Part shown: positions 4,333 to 36,300 of the stretch, piece by piece
How positions within the stretch are numbered: the first letter of the stretch is position 1
Layout: each line of letters opens with the position of its first letter
From: Carcharhinus amblyrhynchos
Taxonomy: Eukaryota
Length of the DNA stretch: 64,000 nucleotides
NCBI GenBank assembly: GCA_965287045.1
Contig: OZ336874.1
Coordinates: 54,932,001 to 54,996,000, forward strand
Direction: 5' to 3'
Notes under the pieces: generated by a model
The model's input: the letters and a program-made list of their open reading frames with translations, nothing else
What the model was told of the DNA's origin: nothing
Databases searched by the model: none
Position numbers and translations under genes: made by a program

Positions 4333-5160
4333 TGTTGTGCCTGCCACATTGTCTGTTTTAACCCTTATACGATGGACAAAGCATTGCGAGTAGACTTCTT
4401 GTTAGTACAACCAATATTTATTTAAAACACAGAGTCAATAATCACCCACCCAACCAACAATAACTTATTGTTAATATCTTACAGAAAATACTAAAGTTCA
4501 AGTCCAATACTAGATCTTGACAACTTTGCATGACCGGCAAATACCCAAGCAGATATTGGCCTTTATCGTACACTGGTCTCTGTGGCCCTCTGTGTAGTCT
4601 GGCCCTTTGGCCTAATCTGGCACTCTGGCTCTAGTCTTCCTTCCTTCTCGGATGTGGTAGCTCTCCTCGTGCTGGTCGTTGCTGGCCACGTTCACCATTG
4701 TTGTAGCTCATTCATGGGGTCAGAGAGAGGGAGCTGCTTCTGTGGTGCAGCACTTTTTATCCCTTCTTGCTTTTGTGTCCTTTTGGGTGGTCTCCTGATT
4801 CTTGTCAATCAATCAATCGATCAGGGCTTGATCACCCTGATCGATAAGAATCCAATCAGGTGCTAACACACCAATCTCTGGGTGTGTCCCAAACAGCCAT
4901 CCCTGTAGGTGCTGGAAGCACGTAGGTCACAGGCCTCCCTCCCAAATAAGAGGTTAAAGTTCTCCTTTGTCTGGTAAACAACCCAGTTTGACCAGAGAGT
5001 CCCCTTTGTCCTGGAGATGGCCCATATCTTGTGTATTCAGTCATCTGAGCTGCGGCCTGTTCATCTCTGTCTTTTAGGCTGCAGCCTGCTGTTTTAATTC
5101 TTGCCCAGTTGTCCCAGGTTGCTTTATAAATTGCCATTTTGGGTGGCCCATTTGGCCATA
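4333..5160 (-). repeat. 3' LTR
   Basis: Colinear with 8796-9612 (10 mismatches in a 120-bp segment I aligned). Minus-strand AATAAA at 4417-4422. Confidence 0.93.
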
Positions 5161-5176
5161 GTCCCTCCTTTGATCC
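5161..5176 (-). promoter_or_regulatory. Polypurine tract (PPT)
   Basis: The minus strand reads ggatcaaaggagggac immediately before the 3' LTR start. Confidence 0.8.
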
Positions 5177-5699
5177 TGAATGCAAAGTGTGATGGATCAC
5201 AAACTTAGGACTAATATCTGTCAGGAATTCCCCAGTCACTCAACAGTCAAGCAAGGCGCAGGCATTGGCATGCAAAGCAATAATACATCCCTCTAACATA
5301 TTTACATTCCAGAAGTTACAGACAGCAAACATCCTGCTGTTAACCATGAATTACAAATAACTACACACTCTGAAGCAAAATCATTACAATAAGTCAATTA
5401 TAAACAACCAAACATTCAAAAAACATTACAATCATGAGTCCAATACACGTTCCGATATTAAGATTTTCAACTGTCCATTATTGTCCAGTAGTGCAAAGTG
5501 CAATCTCTGTAAAATTGTGCAAATAAATTAGAGGGGATCGTGATTCGAAGGTGAACCCCATGTTTAATGTTGTGTCAAACCACAAATAGCCGGGATATGA
5601 AAGGTTCATCGTGCTTATTCTGATCATGAGTCTGATAAGGTTGCATCTTTTGTCATCATCTGCCATTGTCCAGAGGAGATCAATGTAATTTCTGCTGTT

Positions 5700-6336
5700 A
5701 TCACATCTAATATTTGATGTATTTACTCTTTGTGCACCCCCCCTTTTTTTCCTGAAGCTGTATTGTATTTAGATAATCCACTGGTAAAAGATCTGACTCC
5801 CAAGTGGCAACATTCTGTTCAAAGGTCAACGTCAACTGGTGAAAGTATAACAAATGACATTTGATTTTTAAAAATCAGTATACAGCTTTCAAGAAATGAG
5901 TTTTAAAACAAAAGACCATCAGTTTGCTTTCAAAGAGTCTTGCAATAAGTTACAGGAAAAGGCTGTTGCATAGGGAGATCTCTCATTACCTTTCAGTGGC
6001 AAGGAAAATGACTCAGAAGTAACTAGGTACATTGCTGGCTATATTCAACTTGCGGTCTCAATCCCTTGACACATGTTCCATGCAATTTTCCAAGTAAAGA
6101 CATTTAAGTTCATTAAAAGCCACACTTTTTAAATGAAGTGCTCAATCCTCATAACGAGTTAACTGAGTCAATAATGGATAGCAAGATTAATCATGGTGAA
6201 AATGGTTCTCTAGCATTTTAACATAACAGGCAAATCAAATTTCATCAGATACAGCTGTCTGTGGTTCCAGGAGCCATTTTGGGAACAAGATGGGAGCTTG
6301 ATCCTGAATCTGGCAGAAATGCTTCTTTTGCTTTGA
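5700..6336 (-). other. Probable 3' UTR of the captured CIRBP-like mRNA
   Basis: Non-repetitive AT-rich sequence continuing from the CIRBP-like stop. Possible AGTAAA signal near 5722-5727 and no poly(A) tract. The distal boundary is uncertain. Confidence 0.55.
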
Positions 6337-6796
6337 TCAGTCAGTATAACTACCACCACCACTGTAGTAGTATCCATCTTAGCCCTTGTTCCCAGCTGAA
6401 TAGTTATCCCAGTCCCCCCTATTGTACCGGCTTCCACTGTTATTGCCACCTTTCCTGTCACTATCCCCAGTAGCCACCTCCTGCTCCTCTCCCGCGGCCA
6501 CTGTTACTGTAGCCATCTTGATCATACCAGCGGCCATCTCCAGACCTTTTCTTGGCATGACCCACCCAGATCTGGTGCCCATCAGATGATTTCCTGTTCA
6601 TTGCTTGCAATGCATCCCTGGTGTCCCCTGGGTTTTCAGAAGAGATGAAGCTGAAACAGCAGGATGCCATGGTGTCCTTGTCTTTAATCACTTTCACCTC
6701 AGAGATTTGCCTGTACTTGGAGAAAACCTCTTCCAGAGACTGCTTGTCTGCGTTGAAGGTCAGGCCGCTGACAAACAACTTCCCTGCTTCAGTCAT
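6337..6796 (-). pseudogene. CIRBP: Processed copy of cold-inducible RNA-binding protein (CIRBP/RBM3 family): RRM + Gly/Arg/Tyr-rich tail
   Basis: MTEAGKLFVSGLTFNADKQSLEEVFSKYRQISEVKVIKDKDT...AMNRKSSDGHQIWVGHA closely parallels the CIRBP RRM (EGKLFVGGLSF...SLEQVFSKYGQISEV...AMNGKSVDGRQIRVDQA). Intronless; RNP1 decayed; frameshift near 6463 and an internal stop near 6380. Confidence 0.9.
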
Positions 6797-6839
6797 GATG
6801 ACGGGATTGCTGTGCACTTGAGAGTGTGAAGCTCTAGGA

Positions 6840-8508
6840 GCTGGTGGAGCTGATGGCCCTGGTGGTCTTGGGAACCGTGGTGGGGGTCTCCTACAATCTC
6901 GGGCGAAGTGTCCAGGCTGCCGCAGTTAAAACACATCCCTCTATCTCTCCCCGGGGCTGCTGTGTAAGGTGGAACTGTATCTCTCTGGTGTTGGGGATCT
7001 CCTCTACCTTAGTTTCTCCATACTGTACCCTGGCCCGCCCTCATCAGAAGCATTCTCGTCTCCCTATCTGACCGTGATATTGGGGCTCCCTTATCTTCCT
7101 GTTCCCAGACATGAGCTAACCGTCGGAAAACCCATGCTTCATTGTGTGCGGTCTCTGCGGGGTGAAAATTAGCACAGGCTTTCTTGCCTTCCTCTGTGGT
7201 GTGTGAGACTAATGTCCTAGCCCATTTGGACGGATCAGCTTCATCTAATTTAGCCCGATCTAATTCCCCATACACTCCCGCGAAGTGGATCCATAAACAA
7301 CCGGCAAAGGCAGTTGGATGTTCTCCTTTCCTCTGTCTACATTTATTTAACCCATCGACAGGATCCCATTTATAAAATCCTACCGTGGTCAATATTGCTT
7401 CCTTGATCTCTTTCAAGGTTCCTTCCCCGAAATTTTGACAGGCTGGCAGGGCACACCGTACAGACTTGCTTAAGCACATGACTATCAGCTTCATTTCTTT
7501 TCTTTCATCTAGCCCATGCACTATCTTCTGCTGCCCAATATCCTCAAAGAAACTGTGGGTCAGACGATGACTCAAAGGTTGTGATTTTATTTGCGATTTT
7601 GGCCAATTGTGCCACCGTAAACGGGATCGTGTATGTAACAGCTGGGCCCTGAGACTCTCCTACCTGACATTCAGCCATCACTGGGTGCATCGGTACTGGA
7701 GGTGAATCAGGGGCACGGTGGGCATGACTTCCTCTGGGAAAGATGGTGGTGGACCCCAATCATCGATTCACATAATGTAAAGTTTAGCATTCTCCTTTAA
7801 CTCTGCCCAATCTGCATCCTCTATCTCCTCTTCTCTACTGTCCCGAAGGTACACATAAATCCATTTTGAACTGATAATCGGGATTCCAGCTGTGAAATTA
7901 CTCGCTGGCATTTGGAGTGGTCAGCGGTTGCCTGTCTCTGTTCTTTACCGGTTTGATGTAGCGCCTTTATAGCAGCCTGCAGATCAGTGCACTTAGTTTC
8001 CAATCGTGCTACCGCCCACTTGGCTTCACCTTTGGTCAAGACTGTGTGCAGGGCATTTTGGTAGGCTTTCTCATACTGGGTTTGAAAATTGCCCAGATGT
8101 AGTAAATTTGCCTGGCTGGTTCTCTAATTCCTCCACCTCTCTGTCCTTTTTGGCTCATATTTGGTCTATCCTCTCCTGATGCTGTTCCCTTAGTTTCTTA
8201 ATCTCCTTCTTCTTTTCCTCCTATGCCTGCTTCTACTCCTCCAGTCCCTTACGAACTATGTTTAATTCCTTTTCTGTTCCTAGCAGCTGTCCTAAGCAGC
8301 TCATAATGACAGTCACTTTCTCACATTTGCCCGCCTGTTTTCCCTGAACTTTCCTCACACCGCCCCAATACTTCTGCCCCAGGGATCCCGGTCCCACCTC
8401 AGCATTGGCACAAGATCCTGCCCATAACGGCCATCCTTTCTTCTCAATATATTCTCTGAATTTTGTTTCTCTTATGGGACACTTTGTCTCTGTGCTGTTT
8501 CCTGCCAT
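6840..8508 (-). pseudogene. gag: Degraded gag: N-terminal coiled coil, capsid with MHR-like motif, CCHC zinc knuckle
   Basis: Consecutive minus-strand ORF fragments 8233-8508, 7821-8039, 7544-7759 and 7009-7575 (CRQRKGEHPTAFA). CFNCG/QPGHFARDC at ~6893-6933 with a 1-nt deletion. Confidence 0.85.
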
Positions 8509-8775: not shown

Positions 8776-8793
8776 GTCGCACCAGAGTAGCCA
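8776..8793 (-). promoter_or_regulatory. Primer-binding site, tRNA-Arg(TCT)-like
   Basis: Minus-strand tggctactctggtgcgac 2 nt after the LTR end. The plus strand gtcgcaccagagtagcca resembles the vertebrate tRNA-Arg-TCT 3' end (...tcccaccagagtcgcca), recalled from memory. Confidence 0.7.
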
Positions 8794-8795
8794 AT

Positions 8796-9612
8796 TGTTG
8801 TGCTTGCCACATAGTTTGTTTTAACATTTATATGATGGACAGAGAATTGCGAGTAGACTTCTTGTTAGCATAACCAATATTTATTTAAAACACACAATCA
8901 ATAATCATCCATCCAACCAACAATAAATTTTCTTACAGAAAATACTAAAGTTCAAGTCCAATTCTAGACCTTAACTTAACTTTGTGTGACACAAGTACCC
9001 AGGCAGATTTTGGCCTTTCTCTGTGTGCTGGTCTCTGTAGTCCTCTGTATAGTCTGGTCTTTTGGTCTGGTCTGGCACTCTGTCTTCCTTCCTTCTCCGG
9101 TATGGTGGCTGTCCTCATGTTGGTCGTTGCTGGCGATGGTCATTGTTATTGTAGCTCGATCGTGGAGTCAGAGAGAGAGAGAGAGCTGCTTCTGTTGTGC
9201 AGCACCTTTTATCCCTCCTTGGTTTTCTGCCCTTTTGGGTGGTCTCCTAATTCTTGTCAATCAATCAATCGATCAGGGCTTGATCACCCTGATGGATAAG
9301 AGTTCAATCAGGCGCTAACACACCAGTCTCTGGGTGTGTCCCCAACAGCCATGCCTGTAGGTGTTGGAGGCAGGTAGGTCACGGACCTCCCTCCCAAATA
9401 AGGGGTTAAAGTTCTCCTTTGTCTGGTAAACAACCCAGTTTGACCAGAGAGTTCCCTTTGTCCTGGAGATGGCCCATATCCCGTGTATTCAGTTATCTAG
9501 GTTGCATCCTGTTTATCTCTGTCTTTTAAGCTGCAGCCTGCAGTTTTAGTTCTTGTCCAATTGTCCCAGAGTGCTTTACAAATCACCAGTTTAGGTGGCC
9601 CATTTGGCCACA
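8796..9612 (-). repeat. 5' LTR
   Basis: TG...CA termini (tgttgtgc...ggccaca); direct repeat of 4333-5160. Confidence 0.93.
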
Positions 9613-9620
9613 ATTATAAT

Positions 9621-28068: not shown

Positions 28069-30560
28069 GGGGCAGAATTTAAAATAGCTCGGGATGGTAA
28101 ATCATGCAGAAAGCTGCAATTGTAATTGGTAGTTAGCCCCAAGTGGGAAAACCTGCCACGATCAAGTCAGAGGTAGAAAAGAGTTGACGCGTTCAACTTG
28201 CCCACTAGTGGCAAAAAGGTAATGGGGTAAATTTAATGAGCGTGTTAAAGCAATTTTAAAAGTGAACCCACTCAATGCAAGTTCTGCAAATGTCCTGAGT
28301 GTGCTGGAAAATGCCCAAGTGGCTTTTAAGTGGTTTAGCTGACCTGCTGGAGGTTTGGTGTTAACCTGCATTATTGTTGCCTCCTTTGTTCTGACCACAA
28401 TCAGGTCAGTTTGGAGGTATTAACAATGGGAATCACACACTCAGTAATGTTGAATCCACTGGCAGTGCAAGGAATGGACAATGAGACTGAAGACAATGCT
28501 ACAGAGGCACCTGAACATGTCCCCCAGCAGCAGCTTCAGGAGACAGCAAGGGAAGGGCAGACACAGGTGGCCAGTGCAGCCTAGAATCTCACCCACTTGT
28601 ATGACCTACCCACAAATGGCAGCGAGGCAGTGCCAGAGGGGGACCTGCCTCTTTCAGGAGACAGTGAGTGTTCTAATGCAGGATGACTTGTGCCCAAAGG
28701 ATGGTAACCCAATGCCAGTAGTGCTTAAAGAGATGGCCACACTGAACATCTGCATCACAGATTCATGATGTGGAGATGCCGGTGTTGGACTGGGGTAAAC
28801 ACAGTAAGAAGTCTGACAACACCAGGTTTAAGTCCAACTGATTTATCAGACTATCAAATAAATCGGTTGGACTTAAACCTGGTGTTGTCAGACTTCTTAC
28901 TGTGTTCACAGATTCATTCCAGGGTTTGATAGGAAAGCTGTTGGGATCTCTTTGGCTACCACTCACTGTTGGATAAAGGAGGTGACCAACGCTTTTGCCA
29001 GGAGGGCTGGTGACCTCAGTAAATACTAGGTGGATGAAGACAGCCAGACTGAGTGGTCAGTGGGCTTCCTGGCCATGGCTGGTTTTCCACAAGTGCATGG
29101 TGTGTTTAACTGCAAACATATCATCATTATGAGGGAGAGGCAGCACAATCCTATTCAGCACCGTCTGACCCACCAGTGCATTCGTCGACAGGAAGGGGTA
29201 TATTCAAACATATAGCTTGGTTGGGAGAACTGGAAAGGTATTCCACAGGTGGGAGCAGGTATCCAAACAGCAGCCATGACACCTACATGCTTTGACACTC
29301 ACAGGTACCGCAGCTGTTCACTTTGTAATGGCAACTGAATGGATGGATCCTAGAGAAGTGGGGCTACCCTCGCCATTCCTGGCCCATTATGCGGATATGA
29401 TGCCCTTGTCCTGATTCCAAGGAAAGCTATAACATTGTTACAACCTCAGAGGGCTCTCATTGAGCAGACTATTGTTTTGTTTAAAGTGCATTTCTATTGC
29501 CTGGGCAGGTCAGTGGGAGCACTTCAATGATCTAGTGAAGGTCTCACATATTGTTATGGTTTATTGCATCCAACACAATCCGGCCATGGAAAGGGCGGAG
29601 CATTTAAACCTCGATGAGGGAGAAGCAGCACAAATCTAATCAGGTGAAGACAATGGGATCAGGAGCTAATTCAGGAAGAAGAACGGGTGGGAGCACCTAC
29701 AAGCTGCATATGCCTAGGTAGTGGAGGTGGACACTAGAGAGACAAGAGAAAACCTCACCCTGATGATTCCAGTAGCCTGGTTTGCACTGAGGGCCAGCTG
29801 ATCAAAAGTCATTCTCTGTGATCATTGAAGTTAAATGTCATTCAGCTGCAAACCTCACGTACGCCTTATGCATCTGGTGACCTGATGCTCACAACCATTG
29901 AAGCAGCAAAACACCATGCACAATGCTGATGAGTCCTCTCAGGTGGGGGCCCTGCTACCTTCCTGCTTCAAACCCAATTCAGTTTATGGTGGAAGAACCC
30001 ATGGGGACCTTCACACCTCACCAACAGCTGAGGCCCACTTAAGAGTCTCATCCTGCTGCTGCTGCTGCTGGTCATCACTCAGCAGTGGGCAGAAAACCCA
30101 CCAAGCAGGGGATACAATAAACAAACGCATTTGGGGTTGCTTGTGGTCTCCCAATGATAATGGTGGCTTTCTTGTCCAAAGGCACTCGGTACATGATCAG
30201 GAGACCAGGCATGAAGAAAGGGCAGGAGCTACTAAAAGCATGTACTTTTGCTGCTAACCCTTCACTCCCCCCTGCCCTGTGATCCCCACAAACCCCTTCT
30301 CTTGCCATCATTTACCTGGGTTGGGTCCCTCCCTCATCCAAGGCCTAGGGTGGGTATCATACTGACAGCAGCTATCACCTCCCTGGAGGGGTAGCACTGC
30401 TGAGTACAGAAGATCTGCCAGCATCCGATTGAACAGCAGCTCTTGACAGATGGATCTTCCACCCCTGGGGTCCTTGATACAAGAGAAGGCACACCACTGA
30501 CCTGTGCTGTGCTGGATCCCATTAACCTACTGAATGAATCTCCGCTGCTCTACCTTCAAG
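28069..30560 (+). mobile_element. PIF/Harbinger transposon remnant (HARBI1-like DDE transposase ~28980-29590)
   Basis: GFLAMAGFPQVHGVFNCKHI, AFVDRKG, YPNSSHD, WGYP and RALIEQTIVLFKVHFYCLGRSVGALQ correspond to Harbinger DDE motifs. Outer limits are approximate. Confidence 0.75.
28767..28905. mobile_element. Short palindromic Penelope pLTR insertion with 12-bp TSD
   Basis: ~48-bp inverted arms (aacacagtaagaagtctgacaacaccaggtttaagtccaac). TSD tcacagattcat at 28755-28766 and 28906-28917. Confidence 0.85.
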
Positions 30561-33390: not shown

Positions 33391-36300
33391 AGATACTATA
33401 CGATGCTTGGATAAGATACTGTAAGGTTCACTCTGCACTACAAATGGGGTCACCTGCCCTGAGGTCAAAAAGTCAGACAGCACATGTTCAGAAATGAGCC
33501 AGAGTAGCAGATTCAGTGATGTGACACCTACAGTTAAATCTGTTGCTTTGAGTGTTGTTCTTCAAGCCTGAGATGTGACATGAGTGAGGAAGGTAATGAT
33601 GGGAGATGTTACAAACGAATGGTCTAGTTGGACCAATGCATGGCACTGGCTTGGAGGGCCAGAGGGCCTGTTTCCTGTGCTGTACTGTTCTTTCCTCTTT
33701 GTTCTTTGTTCTTGTTTAGGATTCTGTCAAGACATTTGCTGGAGCTGATTTGTCTGCACTCTGGGGAACTGAGCCATTTGATCTGATGGGTGATGCCAGG
33801 ACCATCTGTGAGAATGGAAAGCATGACAGGAACGGTTTGAGGTGTATGCAGCCAGTCATGATCTGTCTTTGGACAGGGTGACACTGGCACAGGAAGCACA
33901 GCGACAGGCCTTGTTGTTGTTCAGTGCTTCAGTGAGGGAGACTTTCAAGAGATTTCCTGACCCAGGAGAAAAGATGGATTTTGAGTGAAAGTTTGAAGGA
34001 TTGTAATGTGGCCACACCAAATGCCACATTCTAAAGGTATATTTTCCATCAAATGAGACAGAAAGAGGGAGAAACAGTCACCCAATTTGTGACCTGGTTG
34101 AGGCAGGCATCAGATGGAAGCAATTATGATGCGACTGATCTGAATAACCAGATAATGGATCAGGTGGTCCAACATTGCGATTCGGATAGGTTGAGGTGTG
34201 AGCTGCTGGGAAAAGAGGTGATTTAATGTTGGATGACACTTTGAAAATAGCAGCAGCATTTGAAACAGTGAATAGACAATTTCACAGCACGAAACTTGGT
34301 TCCACATCTGCCACTGATACAACATACGCTGAGGTTAACGGAGTGGCATAACGGACCCCAGGTGTGTGTAAATGTTAACAGCAAATGTCTGAGAGACTGT
34401 TTCAGATGAAGCAACTTGGGGAACTATAAAAGAGATGCCCTGCCAAAAGAAGGATATGCAGACAATGTGGCAAAGGCCATTTTGCCAAGAAGTGCAGAAA
34501 CAAAGTTGAACAGAGTAGGAAGCCTGGCAAAACACATCAAGGAAAAAGAGATGAAAATAGTACAATTGTGAGATGAGTTGCAGAAGGTGCCAAAAGTGAG
34601 GACATACATAGTAATCATGGGAACAAATCTTTTGTCAATGGGACCAACTAGGAGAAAATTCCATTAGTTGTTGGTGATATTGAAGTGAGCATCATTGTAG
34701 ATTCAGGCAGTGACAGTAATAACATCGACAGAACACTCCGGGAGGAACTGAATACAAAGAGAATCAAGTTCATATCTCAAAAATGTGTCAAAAAACTCTA
34801 TTCTTACACCTCCAAAACCCACTTCAAACTATTGGATGTTTTATTGTGGATATGAGAATGTGAATGAAAATGCAGAGACAGAATTTGCAGAGACTAAAGA
34901 GGATGGTGAGCCTCTTCTGGGTAGAGAAACTTCCCCAGTGTTGGAGCTGCTACACATCAGATTGAAAATGAATTGTGTGAAATGCTGTGTGAGGCTTAGT
35001 GAAGAGTTTAGACCAGTGCTTCAAGGAATTGAGAAGTTTCACAACTGTCAAGTGAGATTAATCATGGATGAGAATGTGGTGCCTGTAGTTCAGGCGGTAA
35101 CAGACACCTTTTGGTCTGAGAGGGAAATTGAGACAAAGGTAAAGGAACTGATTGAGCAGGATATCATTGAGCCAGTTCCAGGACCAACATTGTTGGTGAG
35201 GCCAGTTTTGGTCATGTCAGAACCAATTGATGACATCAGACTCCATGTTGATATGTGACAGGGAGAATGAAATGGTAATGAGACAATGTCATCCAATCCT
35301 AACTGTAGACAAAATCTTTTAAGAGTTACTAACAAGCAAGTATTTTCCAAATTAGACTTAAAATGGGGAGACCATAGATGGAGTGCAACAAATATTCACT
35401 GGGCTGATTTCTAGAATGGCAGGATTGTCACATGAGGAGAGATTGGGAAACAGCAGGAGCGTGTCTGCATTGACTGAAATATTTCAAAGCACAGACTACC
35501 AGTCACTCTGTATTCAGATAATCGGCCACAGTTCACTTCACAGACCTTTACAGGCAAGTCACAGGAATTCACCAATACACAGTGATCTGTAAATGACCTT
35601 GAGTAAATAGGGAAGTGACGACAAAGCCAACCCTTAATGAAACAGGTGAAGATTACTCAGGCTAAGGGCAAAGATTGGAAGGCAGCATTGTTATCTGATG
35701 TGACCATGTACGGGGCAGCTCCACTCACCATGACAGGAAAGAGAGCAGCTGAGCTGCTACTTAGACGCAAAATACTCACCGTGATGACAGTGCTGGGAGA
35801 TATCAGTGTTAATCAGGAGGTTCGAGGTCATGACGATGAGAAAAAGGACCGTTTTACACAGATCGCAAAAGGGGAGCCAGACAATTTGATCAGATGCCAG
35901 GTGATGAAGTACTGTTGGGACAGAAGAGTCCAAGTAAGATGGACAGGCTATTTCACTCCCAAGTTGTACATTGTCACCCCAATAAGGGAATGAGTGTGAC
36001 TGTGCAATCCCCAGAGGGTATATTGTATGACAGAAATTCTTGTCAAAAAGTTTCATGGTGGTAAAGGTACAGCAGTAGATGAAGCAGATGTAGGGAGTAA
36101 ATTGACATCTATAAATCCAGAACTCCAAGCCAGTGAGGCTGATGACAGGCAGACAGCTTGCTATCCAGTGGGAAAAATATCAGTTCCAGAGGGGACAATG
36201 ATATTTTGTAATCCTGACGTGATGACAAGAGTTCCCAAGACTGCAGGCAAATCATAGTGTGAGAGAAGACCCCAAAGCAATAAGAAGATTTTGTGTGGAT

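Follow-up and report, generated by a model that had tools for sequence, protein, structure and literature searches.

Acutely transforming retroviruses are laid out as gag-onc fusions. In defective transforming retroviruses such as Hz4-FeSV (v-kit) and SSV (v-sis), host mRNA replaces pol/env and is joined in frame to gag, and propagation depends on a helper. Viruses in which gag is fused to a host gene have mainly been met as short-lived isolates from tumours of birds and mammals, and to our knowledge no CIRBP-like cargo is a known v-onc. Captured host mRNA is also described, in PMC4299795, for the endogenous retrovirus lineages CrocERV29 (KIT-ligand) and CrocERV31 (nectin3), where it occurs in several copies (6–9) with purifying selection reported, and lies in a separate frame between pol and env or in the place of env, with pol kept. 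LTR-mediated retroposition, as portrayed by Tan et al. 2016 (PMC5131818), involves a double template switch at microsimilarities, replacement of internal genes and secondary retrotransposition; its retrocopies are mostly partial and have no poly(A), and the phrase "in frame" does not occur in the main text of that paper.

The window analysed here, a 64,000-nt stretch of Carcharhinus amblyrhynchos DNA, harbours a dead member of a defective endogenous retrovirus family, which we judge to be a germline-amplified transducing retrovirus with gag-onc architecture. The layout agrees with that of defective gag-host transducing retroviruses, as an earlier note on this DNA had suggested: a host mRNA lies between two LTRs, the gag-host fusion is in frame and a related complete helper exists. 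With LTR retrocopies the family shares microsimilarity at the switch points and target duplications around the whole element. It differs from the transforming retroviruses in its germline fixation at no fewer than 36 sites, in residing in a shark, in being known from sequence alone and in carrying as cargo an RNA-binding protein that is no known oncogene. In contrast to the CrocERVs, the shark family is without pol and has its cargo fused to gag, and in contrast to the mostly partial retrocopies of Tan et al., the whole reading frame was taken up to the poly(A) site. A search outside subscription journals and repeat libraries returned no published report of a Gag-CIRBP shark family. In this cartilaginous fish, the gag-host architecture has become fixed in the germline in dozens of copies, and the record of the capture (microhomology, a poly(A) junction, later signal loss and one host gene conversion) remains legible in these copies, which makes it testable whether captured genes are selected during spread.

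Anatomy of the decayed provirus

The element is located on the minus strand, where its 5′ LTR (TG...CA; 8796–9612) and 3′ LTR (4333–5160) share 85% identity over 833 columns (K2P 0.135), and it is flanked by a target-site duplication reading TAAT on the left (9613–9616) and, with one mismatch, CAAT on the right (4332–4329). The earlier designation as an LTR retroelement is borne out by these two LTRs, but the element belongs to an endogenous retrovirus with an env-bearing parent and not to a simple LTR retrotransposon. A decayed primer-binding site for tRNA-Arg(UCU) at 8776–8793 was judged from the parent loci L043 and L049, whose primer sites show an 18-nt match to the 3′ end of the tRNA-Arg(TCT) of the same genome. 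By tblastn with natural open frames from other copies, a broken gag consisting of an N-terminal part, a long coiled coil and a capsid-like region was located at 6934–8508, and alignment to other copies placed a single CCHC zinc knuckle at 6893–6933. Alignment of junction-bearing copies, parents and host further revealed a proline-rich gag tail (6834–6892) extending to the virus/host junction, with a CTCCT (6840–6836) common to virus and host.

Beyond the junction, sequence alignment identified a captured host 5′UTR (6797–6833) that forms an in-frame linker of 12 codons, and the text before the ATG in Cetorhinus and Scyliorhinus gene models is identical to this linker. The captured CIRBP-B-like coding sequence (6337–6796) runs from the CIRBP ATG at 6796 through the RRM (6796–6545) and the RGG tail to the native stop at 6339–6337. 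It is followed by the captured host 3′UTR (5749–6336), in which 374 nt are deleted at about 6181 throughout the family and the poly(A) signal (5769–5764) has decayed, and by an A-run at the host/virus 3′ junction (5744–5750) that is likely a poly(A) remnant meeting the viral A-rich tract. Viral remnants at 5161–5743, comprising a piece near the env start and the 3′ region with the polypurine tract (about 5171–5163), were recognised by matches to the parent loci L038, L043, L046 and L049. The host insert takes the place of the gag tail, pol and most of env.

In line with the earlier note, the minus strand is free of stops from 6925 to 6461 and leads from half a knuckle into the RRM (QPGHFARDC-RRPPPRF...HSNPVI-MTEAGKLFVSGL); this frame gave an RRM_1 match with an E of 2.7e-13 and a weak zf-CCHC match. 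The 1-nt deletion reported for the knuckle also stands, the knuckle being one base short relative to other copies, but it is not the only lesion nearby as had been claimed: gag has a stop at 7011–7009 with further stops and frameshifts upstream, and a one-base insertion near 6465 closes the CIRBP frame early, at 6463–6461. The RGG tail of this copy moreover shows two in-frame deletions. Every family copy examined is in a broken state.

The parent retrovirus

Parent loci were found to carry the same gag tail, followed by about 37 more residues, a TGA stop and a protease in the same frame, and then RT, tether, RNase H, integrase and an env-like gene (RT_RNaseH_2, RNase_H and rve matches). When their gag-pro junction was used as a query, all 40 scored matches, among 193 candidates, were near full length. 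The parent is a retrovirus of gag-pro-pol-env layout whose primer site matches tRNA-Arg and whose Gag combines a coiled coil with a single zinc knuckle. The predicted structure of a sister copy contains a helix about 105 residues long (pLDDT of about 90 or higher), and the Atlas look-alikes of gag were retrotransposon gag clusters (0.90–0.94); Foldseek on the capsid model, in which the capsid region was modelled poorly (pTM 0.28), returned nothing at E≤0.001. The env-like frames display a cleavage site and a hydrophobic end. Their sole profile match was faint (Baculo_F, E 0.055), four short env fragments gave no match to PF00523 (paramyxovirus F), and env fragments in the Atlas search yielded lectin look-alikes under 0.9 only. 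Compared with PDB entries, RT scored 90–93 bits against MuLV-type, 45–60 against foamy and 55–57 against Ty3 enzymes, while the closest Pol was that of an unclassified Xenopus tropicalis element (49–50%).

By its traits, the parent recalls snakehead retrovirus (SnRV). Its tRNA-Arg primer site is like that of SnRV, which we take to be primed by Arg. Reports on SnRV-like elements (CmiERV lineage I, PMC4422223; PMC2717909) describe a Gag that has a coiled coil and a zinc finger, and a gag stop lying in the frame of pro, both as in the parent, and relatives of SnRV exist in the elephant shark according to the former; the parent differs in that its stop was TGA in 23/23 copies read. With the lokiretroviruses, as described in PMC7947760, the parent shares a tether and second RNase H, an R-x-x-R-type cleavage site and a cysteine-rich env, as well as the coiled-coil (SMC-like) region that some of them have. 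A link to them is conceivable. Points of difference are the lack of a PF00523 match on the four short env fragments and an RT that scores best on MuLV-type PDB enzymes, and lokiretroviruses are not reported from cartilaginous fishes.

Intact relatives are present in Scyliorhinus torazame, where three proteins annotated as uncharacterized (P0125, P0126 and P0203) represent long open gag frames of a related virus, 42–45% alike, and might be young or co-opted copies. At one further locus (L123:1435–1521), ARAGORN called a tRNA (anticodon CTA) whose 3′ end is that of tRNA-Arg; it is probably a mis-read intron-bearing Arg tRNA.

Donor gene, capture and spread

The earlier note had named host CIRBP as the source of the cargo. 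The captured sequence is indeed CIRBP-B-like, but it came from an intronless paralogue and not from spliced CIRBP: the donor is an intact, intronless CIRBP-B-like gene of 164 codons at L033/L034 in a tandem cluster on C7, with L034 matching the coding sequence and providing the best fit for the UTR. The spliced multi-exon CIRBP genes of C26 were rejected as donors, as they differ from the captured sequence. In the host, the donor coding sequence has no intron. Full-length donor orthologues were retrieved from catshark, white shark, horn shark, sevengill, sawshark and sawfish. The donor gene is elasmobranch-wide, and its presence across sharks and rays indicates that the transfer went from host to virus.

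The cluster itself (L031–L034; C7:121.53–121.66 Mb) consists of four intronless CIRBP/RBM3-like genes in tandem, among which L033 and L034 have identical coding sequences and UTRs that differ at 59/848 sites. In other sharks, annotation pipelines fuse neighbouring genes of the cluster into multi-RRM models (P0121–P0124, P0127), and P0121–P0124, once considered as Gag fusions, proved to be such merged tandem host gene models instead. Two neighbouring spliced CIRBP-like genes at C26:15.16–15.19 Mb and a decayed CIRBP-like piece at C6:13.77 Mb were also noted (L035–L037).

The captured piece extends from 37 nt before the ATG, directly after the 5-nt shared stretch, to 17 nt past the AATAAA, where it gives way to an A-run, beyond which the virus resumes with sequence shortly ahead of env. 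This end position, together with the A-run, marks the captured source as a polyadenylated mRNA. The AATAAA has been lost in 19/23 copies and kept in 4/23, and two of these four also retain the host residue at codon 4, which fits an early loss of the signal.

Both switch points display microsimilarity, CTCCT on the 5′ side and the A-run versus the viral A-rich tract on the 3′ side. In the alignment, the CTCCT has one and the same codon phase in parent and host and is where the copies switch from virus to host, with about 37 gag-tail residues replaced and the 12 host 5′UTR codons included in the fusion. When 27 copies were scored for the distance from the knuckle end to the ATG (two being unscorable), it was a multiple of three in 14/25, nine of which were also free of stops. 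The other 11 copies carry small indels away from the junction that are private, except for a one-base gap in the gag tail of L005 and L007. One natural copy even has an open frame of 482 codons over capsid, knuckle and RRM. Taken together, these in-frame distances, mostly private indels and long open frame show that the fusion frame was the original state of the family, and no gag stop or other frame before the ATG, which the earlier note had named as refuting its in-frame junction, was encountered as a family trait. A full Gag-CIRBP protein was not among the matches listed in two protein searches (6 and 12, respectively), although one protein (P0211) crosses the junction in a shifted frame, and no contig among the 32 pieces listed (with 11,564 more) of two presumed RNA runs bridged the junction.

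A 301-nt junction query gave 197 candidates, of which 40 were scored: 28 span the junction, three are host C7 genes and nine match on the gag side only. The junction is therefore family-wide and not confined to one locus. A 22-nt junction pattern likewise had 21 matches in the genome versus 0 for its reversed control. With the loci added by a 3′ query, captured sequence was present at 37 fetched loci, two of which form a duplicated pair, amounting to at least 36 genomic places. In each uninterrupted copy, the match to the host breaks off at position about 722, resumes at 1096 and stops at about 1536. As all copies covering those sites have the same 374-nt UTR deletion and the same 3′ end, there was a single capture. 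The deleted segment sits on a TGTTA repeat and is present in host contigs from presumed RNA runs, indicating that the gap is not an intron.

Target duplications of 4 bp, each different, were recovered in 8/28 rows (four perfect and four with one mismatch) and mark independent integrations; the other 20 rows had no outer end or were mis-picked. They surround whole proviruses, whereas a duplication around the CIRBP insert, which the earlier note had named as refuting its reading, was not observed. LTR pairs of 19 copies had a K2P of 0.07–0.19 (median 0.14); the age of about 300 million years that follows from a rate of 2.2e-10, as assumed in PMC4422223, was distrusted. In the tree, the family forms a branch separate from the host gene with 86% support.

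The family occurs beyond C. amblyrhynchos and is common to at least one other shark. A protein of Mustelus asterias (P0011) has all five family-typical residues and no match above 83% in C. amblyrhynchos, and in a DNA run of a second organism (G) one contig spans the junction, while a contig across the flank and LTR of the window locus shows 15 differences over 525. P0011 is apparently a retroviral family copy annotated as a cold-inducible RNA-binding protein gene, which may serve as a warning to annotators. Co-option of P0011 was considered and rejected, its eight differences from the commonest residue per column lying inside the range of the copies (7–24, n=24).

Some two-LTR copies are without most of the fusion (L078, L056). 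L078 is a deletion derivative in which capsid, knuckle and RRM are gone, and L087 is another, with the junction kept and nearly all cargo lost. In one copy, a unit of about 44 nt is repeated in tandem within the viral 3′ region (L084:2491–3082). The captured part of L056 (4996–5201; the same locus as L007, some 1 Mb away from the donor cluster on C7) is close to the host: it differs from the present host gene at 3/198 sites, while 25 other copies diverge by at least 9.5% (mean 14%). As the LTRs of L056 differ by 0.15, this points to a later event in which the host gene either converted this copy or was captured anew.

Selection and competing explanations

Raw pairwise dN/dS to the host (pooled 0.32) was rejected as evidence, because host CpG at synonymous positions decays in dead copies (o/e 1.07 vs 0.22) and makes this ratio misleading. 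Non-CpG variants were instead classed per column against captured-UTR rates, excluding L056 as a converted copy; for the gag variant counts, L075, L105 and L111 were dropped as duplicates and the junction-bearing L087 was left out of both the family and the parent group. Singletons behaved neutrally, at about 1.0–1.1 (gag 1.09; coil 0.76). For gag variants present in ≥2, ≥3 or ≥4 copies, the replacement ratio was 0.61, 0.52 and 0.34 (p 0.001, 0.005 and 0.001), and without variants seen in ≥3/32 parent rows it was 0.61, 0.60 and 0.40 (p 0.004, 0.047 and 0.015); the parent control was weak (0.64–0.89, not significant). Shared RRM variants yielded 0.77, 0.66 and 0.44 (p 0.18–0.22; best p 0.09 with a second control), and the RGG tail was neutral, near 1. 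Of the Gag-NC-RRM-RGG module proposed in the earlier note, the in-frame, family-wide fusion holds; selection is clear for gag alone, hinted at for the RRM and not seen in the RGG tail.

On the stem, 1–2/238 non-CpG replacement sites changed versus 9/317 UTR sites (Fisher p 0.03–0.08), and near-fixed replacement changes of the RRM at codons 15, 49 and 82 are all at CpG sites, as in decay. Shared indels comprised 12 in-frame and three shifting ones in coding sequence, as opposed to 14 and 46 in non-coding sequence, the in-frame ones being largely in short repeats and partly double-counted. The RNP aromatic residues persist in 25/25, 23/25 and 24/24 copies; Phe codons change slowly anyway. Both trees are star-like, and linkage between gag and captured-part variants is weak (rho 0.11, p 0.047; 19 strongly linked pairs vs 25.6 in shuffles), so that the gag signal may stem from helper recombination. 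One parent locus (L041) nests among family copies with 85% support. Moreover, as host paralogues are homogenised (compare L033 and L034), the stem may include host evolution. Both selection tests are thus confounded, by helper recombination and host gene conversion.

The best explanation, which we favour with some reserve, combines capture of CIRBP into gag by two RT template switches with helper-aided spread and a Gag-RRM-RGG protein. A poly(A)+ host mRNA would have been co-packaged with viral RNA. RT would then have jumped from the A-rich tract ahead of env in the viral RNA to the poly(A) tail of the mRNA and, by way of the CTCCT match, back into gag; such co-packaging with a double template switch, after the model in PMC5131818, is very likely. 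The chimera would then have been copied in trans by the parent Pol, helper Pol being needed for spread since the element has no pol. Later copies would have benefited from loss of the captured AATAAA, since an internal signal of this kind would truncate genomic RNA at a premature 3′ end. A fusion of roughly 730 residues would be translated from the gag AUG, and its Gag part was probably functional. The RRM may have added RNA binding that improved packaging or stability of the RNA of the element; that it aided binding of this RNA can be put forward tentatively, a selected role of the CIRBP part being just as tentative and unproven. Somewhat more doubtful is that the RRM acted as a second RNA-binding module behind the knuckle, was kept by selection and was used to out-package the helper. 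If true, host RNA-binding domains would be recruitable into retroviral capsid polyproteins, and this fossil gag-host fusion virus would have spread to its own advantage.

The main rival, which we regard as rather unlikely, holds that the family is an ordinary LTR-mediated retrocopy whose cargo, taken from an abundant mRNA, was a passenger, its frame being a one-in-three accident of microhomology and its spread relying on its cis signals alone, with every protein supplied by helpers. The lack of significant selection in RRM or RGG among copies, the star trees with weak linkage of gag and cargo, the CpG-type changes on the stem and the existence of copies without the fusion would all suit it, and such chimeras are described, in PMC5131818, as re-transposing as non-autonomous elements. 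It accounts poorly, however, for a gag deficit that survives removal of parent-shared variants, for the stem deficit of replacement changes (p 0.03–0.08) and for shared coding indels that are mostly in frame. It is improbable that the fusion acted on the host cell instead, being amplified by infected germ cells or tumours in the manner of a transduced oncogene. The whole CIRBP reading frame was captured, the RNP aromatic residues are kept, and the layout is that of helper-needing defective transforming retroviruses as presented in PMC13297096; yet the RGG tail is neutral, slow Phe codon change weakens the point of the aromatic residues, and a cellular role is not separated from one in the particle by the analyses made here.

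Splicing of a donor-like gag site of an upstream provirus into the host transcript could be considered as well, as the parent reads AG|GT at the junction. The copies nevertheless have two bases more than a clean join of donor and acceptor would leave, one host contig of a presumed RNA run is unspliced over 255+ nt upstream of the site, and an LTR or gag match is absent from seven host-cluster stretches of 10 kb, making such an origin very improbable. Finally, the A-run at the 3′ end might evoke a local artefact, either an L1-made CIRBP pseudogene within one provirus or host C7 genes derived from the element. This was refuted by copy number and replacement structure, with identical junctions at dozens of loci and pol replaced and not interrupted; donor orthologues in rays and distant sharks and the family branch apart from the host gene also leave it next to no probability.

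Elsewhere in the window, nested inverted repeats at 1831–2718 (110 nt at 81% and 79 nt at 92%) probably represent a small non-autonomous DNA element or paired repeats. A near-perfect hairpin of 52 nt (96%) at 28795–28909 is formed by two head-to-head copies of a short repeat that recurs at 2215 and 23715. On the plus strand, 34752–35258 carries decayed RT-like sequence from another LTR element that looks Gypsy-like by eye, and the remaining window holds LINE fragments and no long host frame.
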